From a virus (lineage: Duplodnaviria > Heunggongvirae > Uroviricota > Caudoviricetes), in the IMG/VR virus record IMGVR_UViG_2859827302_000002: DNA of 38,307 nucleotides, one strand, 5' to 3'. Positions 1,081 through 8,638 of the stretch are shown in pieces. The notes under the pieces are model-generated. The model was not told the origin of the DNA, made no database searches, and saw only the letters and a program-made list of their open reading frames with translations. Both the position numbers and the translations under genes were made by a program. Positions within the stretch are counted from its first letter, which is position 1, and each line of letters begins with the position of its first letter.

Positions 1081-2130
1081 ATGGCTAATACTGTAAAAAT
1101 ATCCAGTTGTGAGTTAATCAACGCCGACTGCCTGGAATTTATCCGGTCGTTACCCGAAAATTCTGTTGACCTGATAGTCACGGACCCGCCGTACTTTAAA
1201 GTGAAGCCTGAGGGCTGGGATAACCAGTGGAAGGGCGACGATGATTACCTGAAGTGGCTGGACCAGTGTCTGGCGCAGTTCTGGCGGGTGCTGAAACCTG
1301 CCGGAAGTCTTTACCTGTTCTGTGGTCATCGCCTGGCATCTGATATCGAAATCATGATGCGTGAACGCTTCAGTGTGCTGAACCATATTATCTGGGCAAA
1401 GCCGTCCGGACGCTGGAACGGGTGCAACAAGGAAAGCCTGCGGGCGTATTTCCCCGCCACAGAGCGCATTCTGTTCGCGGAACATTATCAGGGGCCGTAC
1501 CGCCCGAAAGATGATGGCTATGAGGCGAAGGGCAGGGTACTGAAACAGCATGTGATGGCCCCGCTGATTGCTTACTTTCGTGATGCGCGAGCTGCCCTGG
1601 GGATAACGGCAAAACAGATTGCAGATGCCACAGGAAAGAAAAACATGGTGTCGCACTGGTTCAGTGCCAGTCAGTGGCAGCTACCGAACGAAAGCGATTA
1701 TCTGAAATTACAGTCGCTGTTTGCCCGGGTGGCAGAAGAGAAACATCAGCGGGGAGAACTGGAAAAGTCCCATTACCAACTGGTCAGCACATACAGTGAG
1801 CTGAGCCGGCAGTATGTGGAGCTGCAGAGTGAATATAAAAATTTGCGGAGGTATTTCGGTGTGACGGTGCAGGTGCCGTACACCGATGTGTGGACGTATA
1901 AACCGGTGCAGTACTATCCAGGGAAACATCCGTGCGAAAAACCGGCAGAAATGTTGCAGCAGATAATCAACGCGAGCAGTCGTCCGGGAGACCAGGTTGC
2001 AGATTTTTTTATGGGCTCAGGTTCAACGGTAAAAGCGGCACTGGCGCTCGGGCGTCGTGCGATTGGCGTTGAACTGGAGACCGGACGTTTTGAGCAGACA
2101 GTCAGGGAAGTTCAGGATTTAATCGTTTGA
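1081..2130 (+). CDS. phage orphan DNA methyltransferase (N6-adenine/N4-cytosine class, DPPY motif)
   Basis: 349-aa ORF with DPPY catalytic motif (IVTDPPYF) near the N-terminus and an AdoMet-binding FFMGSGST motif near the C-terminus (beta-class order). Confidence 0.85.
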   Translation: MANTVKISSCELINADCLEFIRSLPENSVDLIVTDPPYFKVKPEGWDNQWKGDDDYLKWLDQCLAQFWRVLKPAGSLYLFCGHRLASDIEIMMRERFSVLNHIIWAKPSGRWNGCNKESLRAYFPATERILFAEHYQGPYRPKDDGYEAKGRVLKQHVMAPLIAYFRDARAALGITAKQIADATGKKNMVSHWFSASQWQLPNESDYLKLQSLFARVAEEKHQRGELEKSHYQLVSTYSELSRQYVELQSEYKNLRRYFGVTVQVPYTDVWTYKPVQYYPGKHPCEKPAEMLQQIINASSRPGDQVADFFMGSGSTVKAALALGRRAIGVELETGRFEQTVREVQDLIV

Positions 2131-2932: not shown

Positions 2933-3166
2933 ATGGCATTTAAACACTATGACGTGGTCAGGGCGGCGTCGCCGTCAGACCTTGCGGAGCGACTGACACA
3001 AAAACTGAAGGAGGGGTGGCAGCCATTTGGCAGTCCGGTGGCCATCACGCCTTATACCCTGATGCAGGCCATTGCGGCGGAAGGTGATGTCACCACACCT
3101 GTGGTGGTGAAGCCGTCGGATGGAGAAGGCGCAGTTATCAGCACCACCAGCAACCCGGAGTATTAA
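2933..3166 (+). CDS. DUF1737-like N-terminal domain ORF of nanS-p-type esterase, separated from the esterase body by an in-frame TAA
   Basis: MAFKHYDVVRAASPSDLAERLTQKLKEGWQPFGSPVAITPYTLMQ; same frame as the downstream esterase ORF, with TAA at 3164..3166. Confidence 0.6.
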   Translation: MAFKHYDVVRAASPSDLAERLTQKLKEGWQPFGSPVAITPYTLMQAIAAEGDVTTPVVVKPSDGEGAVISTTSNPEY

Positions 3167-3199
3167 TTTGTTGTTGCCCTGGCCGGGCAGTCAAACGGT

Positions 3200-4894
3200 A
3201 TGGCGTATGGTGAAGGGCTTCCGCTTCCGGATTCATACGATGCGCCCCATCCGCGTATTAAACAGCTGGCGCGTCGCAGCACTGTCACGCCGGGTGGTGC
3301 GTCCTGTAACTACAATGACATTATTCCTGCGGACCACTGCCTGCATGATGTTCAGGATTTGAGTAAGTTTTCACACCCGAAAGCCAGCGCAGCTCAGTAT
3401 GGATGCGTGGGGCAGGGATTACATATCGCGAAGAAATTGTTGCCGTTTATTCCGGCGAATGCCGGTATTCTTCTGGTTCCGTGCTGCCGTGGTGGTTCTG
3501 CATTTTTGGCGGGCGATGAAGGTACCTTCAGCGAATCCACCGGCGCAAGCGAGACCTCGGCACGCTGGGGTGTAGATAAGCCACTGTACAAGGACCTGCT
3601 TACCCGTACTCAGGCCGCACTGAAGGCTAACCCTAAAAATATTCTGCTTGCAGTGGTCTGGATGCAGGGCGAGTTTGATTTGAAACAGGGTGCATACGCC
3701 ACTCAGCCGGGGCTGTTTGATTCCATGGTGGAAAAATATCGTTCTGACCTGTCGGAATTCGGAGGTCAGTGTCTCGGGGGCTCTCCGTCATCGGTTCCCT
3801 GGATTTGTGGCGACACGACCTACTACTGGAAGCAGACTTATTCTTCGCAATACGATGCGGTGTATGGTGCATACAAGACGAAATCCGCAAAAAAAATCTT
3901 CTTTGTGCCGTTTATGACGGATGAAAACGGGCGAAATGTGGGTACCAACGAGCCGTCAGAAGATCCGGATGTTGCGGATATTGGGTATTACGGAGCCGGT
4001 GGTCGAACGGACGCCAAAACCTGGACGACGGCCGACCGTAAAACGCATTTTGGATCATGGGCACGTCGTGGGATTATTTCCGACCGTCTGGCAACGGCGA
4101 TTCTTGTGCATGCCGGGAGAACCGCTGAATTCATTACCGGAAAACAGCCTGATACGGTGAAGCCCACCGGACCTTCCGGTGAAGGTACGGAGAGAGAGCC
4201 GGAACCCCCGGTCAGTAACCGAACCCTGATGAGTCTGCTGGCGTCCGGCGAAGACCTGGCATCACAGGGCTGGCGCTATTATCACAAACCGGCGAGCGGA
4301 GACAATGTTAACAAAAACATTGCTGAAGCGGTGGTCAGTGATGCGGGGGCTACGGGAGGTAAGGCCCTGCAACTGAATAAACCGGAAAACCACATCTGGT
4401 TTCTGGAGCATGATGCAGCCGGACAGGGAGTGGAGTTACTGAAGAAGGGGGGGCGTGTGAGCGTACGGTTTAAGTTGCCGGGTTCACTGGTGCCGAATCG
4501 GTTTGCCCTGGGCATTTACTGGCAGTTGTCGTCCCTGCCGGAGGGAGTGACGCTGGCAGAGGAAGGCAACGACATGCTGATGTCCTTCTTCCTGCAGACG
4601 GATGCGACGAACCTGAACGCGATGTACCACAAGAAGCCGAATGCGAAGCTGGATACGTTCGGGGTCTTTGATAACGGATGGCACACACTGGCTTTTGAGT
4701 TTGCCGGAAACAACAGCATTCAGGTGACGCCGGTACTGGATGAGAAACGGGGGACGCCGTTCACACTGGTGAAATATCCGGCATCAGGGGCGGCGGACAA
4801 ACTGCAACTGACAGGCATATCAAAGGCGGCGACATATACGCTGCTGATTGACAGTGTGAAGGTGGAAGTGAACAACGCGGATGCCGCGGCATGA
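3200..4894 (+). CDS. prophage sialate O-acetylesterase (NanS-p-like, SASA/DUF303) body; likely nonfunctional or needs readthrough
   Basis: 564-aa ORF; frame is open from 3167 and encodes FVVALAGQSNGMAYGEG (the serine-motif region) before the first ATG at 3200. Confidence 0.7.
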   Translation: MAYGEGLPLPDSYDAPHPRIKQLARRSTVTPGGASCNYNDIIPADHCLHDVQDLSKFSHPKASAAQYGCVGQGLHIAKKLLPFIPANAGILLVPCCRGGSAFLAGDEGTFSESTGASETSARWGVDKPLYKDLLTRTQAALKANPKNILLAVVWMQGEFDLKQGAYATQPGLFDSMVEKYRSDLSEFGGQCLGGSPSSVPWICGDTTYYWKQTYSSQYDAVYGAYKTKSAKKIFFVPFMTDENGRNVGTNEPSEDPDVADIGYYGAGGRTDAKTWTTADRKTHFGSWARRGIISDRLATAILVHAGRTAEFITGKQPDTVKPTGPSGEGTEREPEPPVSNRTLMSLLASGEDLASQGWRYYHKPASGDNVNKNIAEAVVSDAGATGGKALQLNKPENHIWFLEHDAAGQGVELLKKGGRVSVRFKLPGSLVPNRFALGIYWQLSSLPEGVTLAEEGNDMLMSFFLQTDATNLNAMYHKKPNAKLDTFGVFDNGWHTLAFEFAGNNSIQVTPVLDEKRGTPFTLVKYPASGAADKLQLTGISKAATYTLLIDSVKVEVNNADAAA

Positions 4895-5029: not shown

Positions 5030-5164
5030 ATGACATTTATTCATCAGGTGATGCTGTACTTCTGTACGGCGGTCTGTGTGCTGTATCTTCTTTCGGGTGG
5101 GTACAGGGCAGTGCGCGATTTCTGGCGCAGGCAGATTGATAAAAGGGCCGCAGAGAAAATCTGA
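5030..5164 (+). pseudogene. small membrane protein gene interrupted at its 3' end by IS600-like insertion
   Basis: ATG 5030, hydrophobic segment MLYFCTAVCVLYLL; stop is supplied by the IS terminus tga at 5162. After removing the IS and one copy of the duplication the frame continues at 6429..6491 to a 64-aa product. Confidence 0.45.
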
Positions 5165-5204
5165 GGTGTACTGGCAATAGCGGACACTACCATTTGTTCT
5201 TTTT

Positions 5205-6023
5205 TTAAGCAGCCATCTGATGATACTTTTCCCTGAAGGCTGCCGGGGAGATATTCCCCAGACGAGAGTGACGACGCTGACGATTGTAGAAAATCTCAAT
5301 GTATTCCCGTATTACTGAGATGGCTTCATCCCGGTTATTAAAACGATAGTGGCTCAGGCTCTCATTTTTCAGCGTTCCCCAGAAGCTTTCCATCGGAGCG
5401 TTGTCGTAACAGTTACCTTTACGCGACATTGATGTTTTCAGACCAGACTGCTCCTGTATGACCCGGTAATCGTATGCGCAGTACTGTGAACCTCGATCAG
5501 AGTGGTGGATTAGCCCGGCAGGTGGGCGCTGGCTCCTGAGCGCCATAAACAGGGCTTTACCTGTCAGCTCTTTTGTCATGCGCTCTCCCATGGCGTAGCC
5601 GACAATTTCGCACGTATAAACATCTTTGATGCCAGCGAGGTACAACCATCCCTCCTGAGTGGCAACATACGTCAGGTCCGCCACCCAGACCTGATTTGGT
5701 GCTGTAGGAGCGAACGTCTGGTTCAGCAGATTTGGCGCAACTGGCAGATTGTGGTTCGGGTTCGTAGTCGCTCTGAACTTGCGTTTCTGCTTACAGCGTA
5801 GCCTTAGCTCCTTACGAAGACGTGCCAGTCGGTCACGACCAACGATGATGCCATTCTCTGCCAGCTCCGTCTGGAGCCGCCGGGTTCCATATGTTTCGCG
5901 AGTGCGGATATGTGCCACCTTAATCTCCAGTTTTAGCCGCTCATCACTTTGTTTTCTGTCTGAGGGTTCATGCTGTACCCAGTTGTAATAACCGCTCCTG
6001 GATACACCAAATACCTGACACAT
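5205..6023 (-). CDS. IS3-family transposase OrfB (DDE), normally made as OrfAB by -1 frameshift
   Basis: 272-aa ORF with HHSDRGSQY and GNCYDNAPMESFW motifs. Confidence 0.85.
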   Translation of the reverse strand: MCQVFGVSRSGYYNWVQHEPSDRKQSDERLKLEIKVAHIRTRETYGTRRLQTELAENGIIVGRDRLARLRKELRLRCKQKRKFRATTNPNHNLPVAPNLLNQTFAPTAPNQVWVADLTYVATQEGWLYLAGIKDVYTCEIVGYAMGERMTKELTGKALFMALRSQRPPAGLIHHSDRGSQYCAYDYRVIQEQSGLKTSMSRKGNCYDNAPMESFWGTLKNESLSHYRFNNRDEAISVIREYIEIFYNRQRRHSRLGNISPAAFREKYHQMAA

Positions 6024-6058
6024 CGCTTCAATGGGAAATTGTTGTCGCCATTGTTCGA

Positions 6059-6361
6059 TTAACGCGTATTTTTCAGCGACTCCTGTGCAAAATACGCTGT
6101 TGCTTTTTTTAATATATCTCGCTCAAGGCGAGCTTCATTTAACGCCTTACGCAGTTGCAGAATTTCAGATTCCAGTTCAGCCACCGTGCGGGAACCAGGA
6201 GTACCGAGCCCTTTTCTGGCGGCGGTAACCCATTGTCCTAAAGTGCCTTCAGGAAGGGATAATCGGGAAGCGCCTTCACTGATCGAAAGTTGATTTTCAA
6301 GAACCGTTCTGACAGCTTCGGCTTTGAACTCTTTAGAGTAACGTTGGTTTTTTCTGCTCAT
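6059..6361 (-). CDS. IS3-family transposase OrfA (HTH)
   Basis: 100-aa ORF MSRKNQRYSKEFKAEAVRTV... with HTH and leucine-zipper-like C-terminus. Confidence 0.85.
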   Translation of the reverse strand: MSRKNQRYSKEFKAEAVRTVLENQLSISEGASRLSLPEGTLGQWVTAARKGLGTPGSRTVAELESEILQLRKALNEARLERDILKKATAYFAQESLKNTR

Positions 6362-6516
6362 TATTAGCTCCTTCTGATGCCATTCTATTTCAGGAAGGAG
6401 TGTCCGTTAAACTCAGGCTACCTCAATCAGCGCCAGTCAGTCAGCCGGAGCAAAAACAGAAGCCCCACTCATTCCGGAACAACCTTCTTAATAACCCATT
6501 TCAACGAGAAAATCCT

Positions 6517-6786
6517 ATGTCAGAAATAAAATCGCTGGTCACTGCTGAGGCAGTGAAGGAAGTCCTGCGCTCTGAAGAAGTCCGGAGCGCACTGAAACAG
6601 CAACTTCGGCAGAACCTTGAGGCGCGTCTTGATGCAGAAGTGGATTCAATTCTGGATGAACTGCTGGGCGCACCGACTGTTCCGGAGCCGGAAGGCATTG
6701 CGGATGACAGTGCTGTTTCAGATGGCGTCGGGTCTCAGCCTGACGGTAGTGAAGGGCCTCAGCCTGACGGCGAAATGATGATGTAA
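6517..6786 (+). CDS. acidic hypothetical phage protein
   Basis: 89-aa ORF from ATG 6517 (MSEIKSLVTAEAVKEVL...), Asp/Glu-rich C-terminus, directly upstream of holin. Confidence 0.4.
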   Translation: MSEIKSLVTAEAVKEVLRSEEVRSALKQQLRQNLEARLDAEVDSILDELLGAPTVPEPEGIADDSAVSDGVGSQPDGSEGPQPDGEMMM

Positions 6787-6861
6787 CCATGCGCAGGGGG
6801 TGTCGGTGTGAGCTGATGCCCCACTTGTTGTTGTGAGCTTCCGGATTGCGGGAGACGGGGT

Positions 6862-7077
6862 ATGTACCAGATGGAAAAAATCACAACAGGTGTGTCATAC
6901 ACCACGTCAGCGGTGGGAACGGGCTACTGGTTCCTGCAGTTGCTGGACAGGGTTTCCCCGTCTCTGTGGGCGGCAATAGGCGTACTGGGGAGTCTGCTGT
7001 TTGGGCTGCTGACATATCTGACTAACCTGTATTTCAAAATCAGAGAGGACCGTCGTAAGGCTGCACGGGGAGAGTAA
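6862..7077 (+). CDS. class II holin/pinholin (S21-like) with dual-start motif
   Basis: 71 aa, two TM segments ([32 protein letters not shown]), charged C-terminus, MYQMEK alternative starts. Confidence 0.8.
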
Positions 7078-7081
7078 TTCA

Positions 7082-7426
7082 ATGACTCAAAACTATGAAC
7101 TGATTGTGAAAGGGATCCGCAATTTTGAGAATAAAGTTACGGTAACTTTAGCGTTACGGGACAAAAAACGCTTTGACGGTGAAATTTTTGACCTGGACAT
7201 CGCGCTGGACCGTGTTGAAGGTGCCGCGCTGGAGTTTTATGAGGCAGCAGCCAGAAGGAGCATCAGACAGGTCTTCCTGGATGTTGCTGCCGGGTTATGT
7301 GAAGGGGATGAGCAGTCGCCGGAAAAGCGTCCCGTAATTTTAGAGGCGCAGGATGTGTTGATAACCTACAGAGGAAAACTACCGGGAATAATTACGGGTT
7401 CTCTGAAGAGTCCGCCGAAATGGTAA
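7082..7426 (+). CDS. DUF1327-like (YdfR-like) protein between holin and endolysin
   Basis: 114-aa ORF; position and N-terminal sequence resemble Qin prophage YdfR as I recall it. Confidence 0.5.
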   Translation: MTQNYELIVKGIRNFENKVTVTLALRDKKRFDGEIFDLDIALDRVEGAALEFYEAAARRSIRQVFLDVAAGLCEGDEQSPEKRPVILEAQDVLITYRGKLPGIITGSLKSPPKW

Positions 7427-7664
7427 TTTTACCAGCATATTTTTCATCCAGTAATACAGCAAGCCGCCTGAAAGAGTCTTGTTGTTCCTGAGACCATTTG
7501 GGATTGCATGATTCAAACTGGATTGATGCCAGCGTTGATTGCATCTGTTCCCTTGGAATTGAGAATGCCAGATATGAGAAGGCGACGGTAAGGGTATTCA
7601 CGTCTTCCCGAAGCCTGGAAATGCTGTCGAGCAACTCCTGTAGAGAAATGGTGTTATTGTCCAT
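7392..7664 (-). CDS. hypothetical 90-aa protein, antisense to the lysis operon, AT-rich
   Basis: Minus-strand ORF with SD aggatt upstream of ATG 7664; predicted helical; convergently overlaps the DUF1327 gene by 35 bp. Confidence 0.4.
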   Translation of the reverse strand: MDNNTISLQELLDSISRLREDVNTLTVAFSYLAFSIPREQMQSTLASIQFESCNPKWSQEQQDSFRRLAVLLDEKYAGKITISADSSENP

Positions 7665-7769
7665 AAATAATCCTCATGATTGTATTGACCTGTTAGCAGC
7701 CTGAGGCAACAGGCTGGAACTGATAAACATATCCAGGGCTCAGAAACCGATAAATCCTGATAAATATCC

Positions 7770-8303
7770 ATGAACGCAAAAATCAGATACGGCCTGTCGG
7801 CTGCCGTTCTGGCGCTGATTGCCGCTGGTGCGCCTGCGCCTGACATTCTCGACCAGTTTCTGGATGAAAAGGAAGGTAACCACACCACGGCATACCGTGA
7901 TGGCGCGGGTATCTGGACCATCTGCCGCGGTGCCATCCTGGTGGATGGCAAACCTGTCGTTCCGGGCATGAAGTTGTCGAAGGAAAAATGCGACCGGGTT
8001 AACGCCATTGAGCGTGATAAGGCGCTGGCATGGGTGGAGAAAAACATCAGAGTGCCATTGAGCGAACCCCAGAAAGCGGGGATCGCGTCATTCTGTCCGT
8101 ACAACATTGGCCCCGGTAAGTGTTTCAGCTCAACGTTTTACCGGAAACTGAACGCCGGAGACCGGAAAGGTGCATGTGCTGAAATTCGTCGCTGGATATA
8201 TGACGGCGGCAGGGACTGTCGGAACCGCTCAAATAACTGTTACGGGCAGGTATCGCGGCGTGACCAGGAGAGCGCGCTGGCGTGCTGGGGTATCGACAGG
8301 TAG
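7770..8303 (+). CDS. SAR endolysin (phage lysozyme R, GH24-like)
   Basis: 177 aa, N-terminal signal-anchor-release segment (LSAAVLALIAAGAPAP) followed by lysozyme-like domain. Confidence 0.85.
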   Translation: MNAKIRYGLSAAVLALIAAGAPAPDILDQFLDEKEGNHTTAYRDGAGIWTICRGAILVDGKPVVPGMKLSKEKCDRVNAIERDKALAWVEKNIRVPLSEPQKAGIASFCPYNIGPGKCFSSTFYRKLNAGDRKGACAEIRRWIYDGGRDCRNRSNNCYGQVSRRDQESALACWGIDR

Positions 8304-8392
8304 CAGAATATTTTGCTGAAAAATGACGCTTGCTCACGCGGGCGGATAACACGAAGTCCTGTGAACTGGCAAAACCTAAGTGAATAAAAGTA

Positions 8393-8434
8393 AAAACCCC
8401 GTTTGTTGGCAGCAAGCGGGGTTTTGTGTTTTCT
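8393..8434 (+). terminator. intrinsic terminator-like hairpin between endolysin and Rz
   Basis: 9-bp stem aaaaccccg/cggggtttt with 15-nt loop, followed by T-rich tract. Confidence 0.4.
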
Positions 8435-8523
8435 GACCTTGAGTAAGGCAAGGGAGAAATTATGGTGAGGGAGGTGCTTTCCCTGTGAGGAAGTATAAAA
8501 GATTCTTTCTGAGGTTGTCCATT

Positions 8524-8637
8524 ATGAAAGGCATTGAAGTGGAGACGCCAGCCAGTCTGGATTTAACAAGAGCGGCAGCTTTTGCCATTCGTATTGTGGC
8601 AATTGCTGTTCTGGTCTGGGCAATCCGTTGGTGGTGA
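8524..8637 (+). CDS. possible 37-aa single-TM peptide immediately upstream of Rz
   Basis: ATG 8524 to TGA 8635..8637 (MKGIEVETPASLDLTRAAAFAIRIVAIAVLVWAIRWW); below the ORF-track size cutoff. Confidence 0.25.
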   Translation: MKGIEVETPASLDLTRAAAFAIRIVAIAVLVWAIRWW

Positions 8638-8638
8638 T

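Follow-up and report, generated by a model that had tools for sequence, protein, structure and literature searches.

The viral sequence IMGVR_UViG_2859827302_000002 (IMG/VR; Caudoviricetes; 38,307 nucleotides, the whole of which is called the window below) contains, within the lysis cassette of a lambdoid prophage, a small gene that runs against the late operon and that we call X. We conclude, with a probability of about 70%, that X is an autonomous accessory gene, or moron, that is antisense in the late operon and is not a lysis component. An initial annotation, made from the sequence without database searches, had proposed a moron with an independent promoter, and the following findings support the moron reading: X is optional at its site, its content of guanine plus cytosine (GC) is atypical, it is found antisense at four other late-operon positions, and it is chromosomal in Serratia. 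What is new is that X is delimited as a mobile unit, with a conserved leader, a family range and a constant pairing with a protein tail that contains the residues ITGSL.

X is a genuine gene

X is more than a chance open reading frame (ORF). The initial annotation described a 90-amino acid (aa) antisense ORF with its own Shine-Dalgarno sequence, flanked by the holin and endolysin genes and overlapping the convergent DUF1327 gene by 35 bp, and all of these features are where it placed them (Table 1). The Shine-Dalgarno sequence, (G)AGGA, is kept in the Chlobot and Escherichia coli B alleles of X. The X frame is the sole frame of the six that is open in all 12 homologues tested, and an intact ORF of 273 nucleotides (nt) is present in every IMG/VR locus with a match (84 of 84). 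When X is compared with an E. coli allele of about 80% identity, the ratio of nonsynonymous to synonymous substitution rates (dN/dS) is 0.28-0.33. The protein matches the PHROG 2411 profile with an E value of 1.1e-58 (residues 1-90 against profile positions 1-90), and RefSeq annotates it in E. coli as a hypothetical protein; the ORF is already known to both RefSeq and PHROGs under that description.

The composition of X deviates from its surroundings, as is typical of morons. Its GC content is 0.451, compared with 0.528 for the holin gene, 0.478 for the DUF1327 gene, 0.566 for the endolysin gene and 0.544 for the whole window (standard deviation 0.053), which puts X at the 6th percentile among 273-nt windows of the whole stretch. 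The gap between X and the DUF1327 gene is modest, though. X does lie below its neighbors and the window, as first described, but "much lower" was an overstatement, because the DUF1327 gene is itself low.

X is optional between the DUF1327 and endolysin genes

X separates two genes that lie side by side in related phages. The DUF1327 and endolysin genes are separated by anything from a 4-bp overlap to a 63-nt gap in the Qin prophage of E. coli K-12, in Stx2 phages and in P0165-type prophages. Qin has the order essQ-ydfR-rrrQ without X, and its homology to the window ends at about position 7288 and restarts at about 7758. The flanks of X are otherwise collinear with Stx2-type phages, which lack a segment that includes most of the gene (Table 1). 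Of 5426 complete E. coli genomes, 1123 carry a 296-bp insert core, which falls into two allele groups (at least 99% and about 85% identity), and X copies with 100% identity occur in many E. coli genomes. Carriers include E. coli B and C43(DE3), in which X is within a lysis-cassette remnant inside Rac, and ST131 strains. Among the 369 cassette-matching phage records found in a search of 50,697 phage records, X is encoded in 3.

This survey of related prophages thus found that some close relatives have X between these two genes and others have the two genes without it. According to the initial annotation, absence from close relatives with identical flanks would speak against the gene. Such absences exist, but they do not make X spurious, since absence with the same flanks is what defines a moron.

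The X-less loci look as if X had been lost or replaced more than once at one fixed junction. Neither the Stx2 phages nor the commonest DUF1327 allele (116 aa) has X, and the two share a left junction right after the ...ITGSLK(T/S)PP codons. The remnants of the X leader differ between them, extending up to a ATATCCAGGG block in one and up to a GGAAC.GATAAAC block in the other. The ...ITGSLK(T/S)PP coding end looks like a recurrent site of recombination.

In the Salmonella prophages L181-L183, the last ~25 codons of X, encoding the last helix (...QQNSFKHLAKELEERLGSSITIL), persist as a remnant fused to the translated upstream leader (3158-3421, minus strand), beside an intact 63-aa partner that has the ITGSL tail. 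At the holin-endolysin site of phage PhiR5_1 (L190, 1271-2114), the DUF1327 protein is 211 aa long and continues in frame past ...ITGSLKTPP into a coiled-coil unit that resembles short Y proteins. This gene is overlapped by an antisense ORF of 86 aa, annotated DUF1823, that is unrelated to X; we considered it as a possible relative and rejected it (hhalign probability 0.6%, with a sub-threshold Pfam match).

The same gene is antisense at other genome positions

X is not tied to one location. In prophages of Citrobacter freundii and C. meridianamericanus it is antisense and immediately upstream of the holin gene; in Atlantibacter phages it is antisense between tail genes M and L; and in loci L102 and L184-L186 it is antisense beside tail gene I (between I and J in L184-L186). 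In every phage context X is antisense to late transcription and divergent from the next late gene. Outside these phages, X is downstream of an autotransporter gene in E. coli islands, and Serratia and Chimaeribacter (Yersiniaceae) have a chromosomal copy in the order pyrC-dinI-X-bssS-solA. In the chromosomal loci L087, L099 and L100, X has the SOS gene dinI on one side and the biofilm regulator gene bssS on the other and is next to rne.

The moron concept is due to Juhala, Hendrix and colleagues (summarized in PMC2629481). Like lambdoid morons, lambda bor among them, X is an optional single gene in the late operon that deviates in composition and runs against late transcription. Lambda bor is an antisense gene, expressed in the lysogen, just downstream of Rz, and Bor is antisense after Rz in the related loci that we examined. 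In contrast to bor, X is inside the cassette, between the holin and DUF1327 genes and the endolysin gene; it has no lipoprotein or membrane signal, whereas Bor has one; and it has no clear terminator here but overlaps, and travels with, the 3' end of a late gene. A lambdoid moron is the nearest known kind of element, and lambda bor is the closest positional analogue.

A conserved leader and a predicted promoter

The leader of X is conserved along with the gene. Six phage-borne X types from four genomic contexts share the pattern TAT(G/T)(T/G/A)T-N6-7-TCAGCC, which comprises a predicted -10 box and a conserved start region (Table 1). The putative -35 element is weak (TTTATC, at a spacing of 17 nt). 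A stem with a loop of 6 nt also occupies the same leader position in every X type; the sequence of the stem differs between types while the pairing is kept (e.g., CAGUG/CACUG versus CAGCG/CGCUG). The energy of the hairpin in the window is reached by 1.3% of shuffled sequences. This palindrome is predicted to be either an RNA hairpin or an operator, and sequence alone cannot separate the two. The initial annotation had placed an independent promoter near 7700-7760. The conserved -10 box, start region and hairpin in that interval argue for it, but the -35 is weak and generic scanning does not recover it.

Other candidate signals near X are less convincing. A weaker alternative promoter would give a nearly leaderless mRNA, and its TACAAT box is kept in the E. 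coli alleles alone. On the minus strand, a generic scan found a single promoter-like site, at 7364-7337, downstream of X. Because X neighbors dinI in Serratia, we inspected the upstream sequences by eye for a LexA box and rejected the idea: CTGT-N8-ACAG is present in Chimaeribacter only and is not conserved. We also rejected CCCTGG(A/T)TATG as a repeated boundary element. The window has one exact copy and four at one mismatch, and this is not a general site, because the count is within shuffle expectation and the element is missing from the L184-type leader. A scan of 6000-10500 with Rfam gave only a sub-threshold match to the rimP leader, elsewhere in the region.

X is a small, acidic, helical protein

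Profile searches that covered 1.8 and 5.8 billion proteins found about 125 relatives of X, of 81-106 aa and 25-99% identity, all annotated as hypothetical. They include the RefSeq proteins WP_000369850 and WP_000370546 ("hypothetical protein"), and the name "ybl58" is used in some sources. The family is restricted to Enterobacterales: Escherichia, Shigella, Citrobacter, Atlantibacter, many Serratia species, Sodalis, Chania, Gibbsiella, Chimaeribacter and Acerihabitans. Distant homologues, at 25-40% identity, keep the length of X, and the copies from Citrobacter, Atlantibacter and L102 also match PHROG 2411.

An AlphaFold2 (AF2) model based on a 55-sequence alignment is a three-helix bundle, with helices at residues 8-35, 38-51 and 59-76, a predicted local distance difference test score (pLDDT) of 82 and a predicted template modeling score of 0.59; the five models are consistent, at pLDDT 81-82. 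The helical character ascribed to the ORF at the outset agrees with this model. Residues ~79-90, which are encoded by the overlap with the DUF1327 gene, are predicted to be disordered (pLDDT below 50). X is acidic, with an isoelectric point (pI) of 4.5 and a net charge of -5, and the median pI of the family is 5.05. The Kyte-Doolittle maximum in a 19-residue window is 0.75 for X and 0.69 for the DUF1327 protein, compared with 1.94 for the holin, and a transmembrane segment is absent from all 55 family members (maximum hydropathy 1.56). Scans of X and the 55 family members with Pfam, NCBIfam and PADLOC gave nothing above noise, and a sequence profile search of the PDB with X found no match at E<=10. 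Profile searching and structure prediction of the 90-aa protein, both of which the initial annotation had suggested, thus yielded a PHROG 2411 match and a three-helix fold with no functional family.

X converges on a partner with an exchangeable tail

The gene that converges on X in the window encodes a DUF1327 protein related to YdfR of K-12. The two proteins are 66% identical and align over the first ~70 residues. K-12 YdfR has another C-terminus, without the ITGSL tail; its gene abuts rrrQ and has no adjacent X. A 2026 study reports that K-12 YdfR uses residues 1-72 to bind the RNase E catalytic half and that RNA co-purifies with it (PMC13232886). These residues are conserved in the window gene (7082-7288), and the difference is confined to the C-terminal 45 aa. 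The ITGSL codons are at 7391-7405, and the stop codon of X (7394-7392) falls within them.

The same pairing recurs wherever a phage carries X. X faces a convergent late-strand ORF in five of five phage contexts, and the 3' ends of the two overlap by 7-47 bp. These partners have dissimilar N-terminal parts (a DUF1327 domain, coiled-coil proteins of 63-71 aa, or a 238-aa protein), and the last ~20 residues are common: G(K/E/N)x...(E)KITGSL(K/R)xP. The codons for ITGSL..P show only synonymous differences when the E. coli, Citrobacter and L102 types are compared; the tail is therefore selected as a peptide and not just as the 3' untranslated region of X. In Atlantibacter phages whose flanks are ~90% identical, including the X leader, the complete X ORF and the final 24 codons of the partner are swapped together. 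The replacement allele, X', is an uncalled antisense ORF of 83 aa in the Atlantibacter loci L187-L189 (2682-2933, minus strand), between tail genes M and L, with a conserved leader and a divergent coding region and partner tail. X' is collinear with the X profile (hhalign E 4.7e-4, probability 32%). The association is one-way: phage-borne X is always beside the tail, and most tailed DUF1327 genes are without X. Taken together, these comparisons indicate that the link between the DUF1327 gene and X is real and is limited to the C-terminal tail of that gene.

A possible explanation of this link, less likely than not though the most probable of the alternatives, is that X and the convergent tail module are a cognate polymorphic pair (effector and immunity protein, or toxin and antagonist), in which a protein expressed late would bear a variable C-terminal module and X, constitutive in the lysogen, would neutralize or recognize it. 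This idea refines the moron explanation and does not exclude it. In its favor, X has a tailed partner (...ITGSL..P) in every one of the five phage contexts, which cover four genome positions, even though X itself diverges by 40-60%; the peptide is conserved through synonymous changes; and in Atlantibacter the tail and X were exchanged as a unit for the X' allele between conserved flanks. However, the tail is kept where X is missing, both in most E. coli copies and in Salmonella, X is alone in chromosomes, and the tail module is only ~20-45 aa and not hydrophobic. In addition, the probability that X' is homologous to X is only 32%, overlapping genes are expected to be co-replaced anyway, and the X family has no match to toxin-antitoxin (TA), defense or immunity families in Pfam or PADLOC.

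The layout also resembles that of pore-forming colicin operons, in which the colicin gene is followed by an immunity gene on the opposite strand and then a lysis gene (PMC4436062). In the window there is likewise a gene with an exchangeable C-terminal module, a small opposite-strand gene with its own (here predicted) promoter, and a lysis gene. The likeness is one of architecture only. Colicin immunity proteins are integral to the inner membrane and the toxin domain is ~180 aa, whereas X is soluble and acidic and the tail is 20-45 aa, and X has no sequence or fold similarity to colicin immunity proteins. As to cognate specificity for an effector's C-terminal domain, the joint exchange of tail and X in Atlantibacter is no more than suggestive. 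TA systems are a poorer fit. Type I TA pairs with convergent 3' overlaps, such as bsrG/SR4 and txpA/RatA, are known from Bacillus subtilis prophages, and they share with X and DUF1327 the convergent units with overlapping 3' ends in a prophage. However, neither X nor the DUF1327 protein has the character of a small hydrophobic toxin, and X itself is a conserved protein, not a small RNA. Nor do the two resemble a type II system: they are convergent, and X, its homologues and DUF1327 have no TA match in Pfam or PADLOC.

Other explanations for X

It is also conceivable, but improbable, that antisense RNA is the main product and the peptide is secondary. In the lysogen, the RNA would damp leaky expression of late or lysis genes, either through transcriptional interference or through RNase III-type pairing. 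X always opposes the late operon and overlaps it at the 3' end by 7-47 bp, and in the window no terminator follows it before a weak terminator-like site at 6903-6889, inside the holin gene; read-through from X into the DUF1327 and holin genes is possible in this window. Yet good hairpin-plus-U terminators directly follow X in the C. meridianamericanus/Citrobacter and L102 copies, and chromosomal orthologues have no antisense target. Antisense RNA is unlikely to be the whole story because X is conserved at the protein level.

We consider it very unlikely that X is a cassette-specific regulator of lysis (a timing factor, an antiholin-like protein or an endolysin inhibitor). The initial annotation had raised lysis timing among the possible functions, and the sole point in its favor is position, between the holin and DUF1327 genes and the endolysin gene. 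Elsewhere the same gene is between tail genes or outside prophages, 366 of the 369 cassette-bearing phage records are without it, it is antisense to the late transcript for the lysis proteins, and it has no transmembrane segment. Scans with Pfam and PHROG gave no lysis-family match for X, which has neither an obligate association with lysis genes nor a membrane or peptidoglycan domain. A function in lysis timing is now unlikely because X is not tied to lysis cassettes, and these genomic comparisons indicate that X is not part of the lysis machinery.

We discount almost entirely the idea that X is a chance frame in a non-coding spacer, or that the true gene is a 68-aa plus-strand ORF at 7498-7704: the latter, whose third codon positions are aligned with those of X, has an apparent dN/dS of 0.16-0.21, below that of X, and is wholly open in the Chlobot and E. 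coli B alleles, but it has only a TTG start and no Shine-Dalgarno sequence in the window and contains 1-5 stops in homologues from Citrobacter, Atlantibacter, Serratia, Sodalis and Chimaeribacter, whereas the X frame is open in every homologue and gives a confident fold. A low dN/dS is an expected artefact in a frame that shares third codon positions with the true frame, and we rejected the plus-strand ORF as an antisense-frame artefact because it is broken in distant homologues.

Proposed mechanism

We postulate that X, as a moron, has a sigma-70-type promoter of its own and is transcribed from it in the lysogen, while the late genes are silent; the predicted -10 box in Table 1 would be part of this promoter. 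The antisense orientation would shield X from late transcription, and the 5' hairpin could stabilize or regulate its mRNA. The protein would work through binding another protein and not DNA or the membrane, because of its net charge and its lack of a transmembrane segment. The target that we favor is the tail module at the C-terminus of the convergent DUF1327/Y protein, or the versions of that module in incoming phages, and X would then be an antagonist or immunity-like factor expressed by the lysogen. The target and this role are the weakest steps of the proposal. X may have landed, or been retained, at the DUF1327-endolysin junction in this prophage lineage.

Several results weigh against this account. 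A consensus promoter scan found no minus-strand promoter upstream of X and a poor -35, and neither the window nor Chlobot has a convincing hairpin-plus-U terminator after X. Repeated losses of X are evident from two different E. coli deletion scars, an internal deletion in Salmonella and frameshifted 94-aa variants in E. coli; X is thus dispensable, and in part of the population it may be in decay. An interaction between X and the tail is not obligatory, because most DUF1327 genes keep ITGSL without X and chromosomal X has no such partner, and the joint replacement of tail and X could be explained by their physical overlap alone. Fold and profile searches of X gave no functional hint, and a search of the available literature library for ybl58, the WP accessions and phrog_2411 found no paper.

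Table 1. Features in and around gene X in the window (coordinates on the 38,307-nt stretch)
Feature	Position	Strand	Details
S21-type class II holin gene	6862..7077	plus	PF04971
DUF1327/YdfR gene	7082..7426	plus	114 aa; PF07041, E 7.7e-43, 145 bits against a cut-off of 25
DUF1327 C-terminal 45-aa part	7289..7426	plus	Absent from K-12 YdfR; ends ...GKLPGIITGSLKSPPKW
Segment replaced relative to K-12 Qin	~7289-7757
Gene X ORF	7392..7664	minus	ATG start; 90 aa
Convergent overlap of X and DUF1327	7392-7426	both	35 bp; end of X against the DUF1327 stop region
Segment absent from Stx2-type phages	7418..7722		Flanks otherwise collinear
Shine-Dalgarno sequence of X, GAGGA	7675-7671	minus	6 nt 5' of the ATG; read from the sequence
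Weaker alternative promoter candidate	7679..7709	minus	TTGCCT, 19 nt, TACAAT; nearly leaderless mRNA
Predicted 5'-leader hairpin or palindrome	7716-7697	minus	CAGCCUG, 6-nt loop, CAGGCUG; -12 kcal/mol
Conserved T(C)CAGCC start region	7718-7712	minus
Predicted -10 box, TATGTT	7731-7726	minus	Preceded by CCCTGGA; conserved start region follows 6-7 nt later
Endolysin (phage lysozyme) gene	7770..8303	plus	PF00959; divergent from X
Rz spanin gene	8582..9106	plus	Embedded Rz1-like ORF at 8859-9044

The surrounding prophage

The lambdoid lysis cassette spans 6862-9106 on the plus strand. Upstream of it, an IS600 element (IS3 family) inserted in the late operon at ~5153-6435 (orfA 6059-6361 and orfB 5205-6023, minus strand) separates an SASA/DUF6645 esterase gene (3200-4894) from the DUF826 and holin genes, and a second transposase fragment is at 1-654. 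The IS600 junction is not shared by any complete E. coli genome, which is a hint of a host resembling Shigella. IS600 is probably polar on the lysis genes, and the prophage is probably defective for late expression; an independently transcribed X would therefore be among the few genes here that are still expressed.

A second small antisense gene in this late region, of the DUF3950/YnfO-YlcI family (86 aa; 9903-10163, minus strand), has a 5' end that divergently overlaps the start of an HNH endonuclease gene (10145-10510), so antisense small genes are not rare in this prophage type. Just downstream of Rz, an ORF at 9430-9771 (plus strand), in a patch with a GC of ~0.40-0.43, encodes a lipoprotein-like product with the lipobox LVMGC and a TonB_C domain, and it looks like another moron, at the position of lambda bor. 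An N6/N4 DNA methylase gene (1081-2130, plus strand) is upstream of the late region, and the arrangement methylase-holin-DUF1327 is also found in P0165-type prophages without X (L192-L195).

Implications

About one-fifth of the E. coli strains sequenced so far carry X, among them ST131 isolates from the clinic and the B/BL21 lineage used in laboratories and in production, and it has no name, domain or literature. It is a clean example of an antisense accessory gene embedded in a lysis cassette. If X is a moron and not a lysis gene, it can probably be deleted with no effect on lysis, a point of use to annotators and phage engineers. The pairing of X with the tail offers a concrete hypothesis for both proteins, that X binds the tail, and it is a reason to examine YdfR in tail-bearing strains.

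We speculate, and regard it as doubtful at present, that temperate phages of Enterobacterales carry a polymorphic two-part module that combines an exchangeable C-terminal tail (...KITGSL(K/R)xP or one of its alternatives) on various late proteins with a cognate antisense three-helix protein, expressed in the lysogen, that recognizes or neutralizes the tail. If so, the module would be a soluble, phage-borne analogue of effector-tail/immunity pairs, and its role might lie in conflicts during superinfection or depend on YdfR, which binds RNase E.

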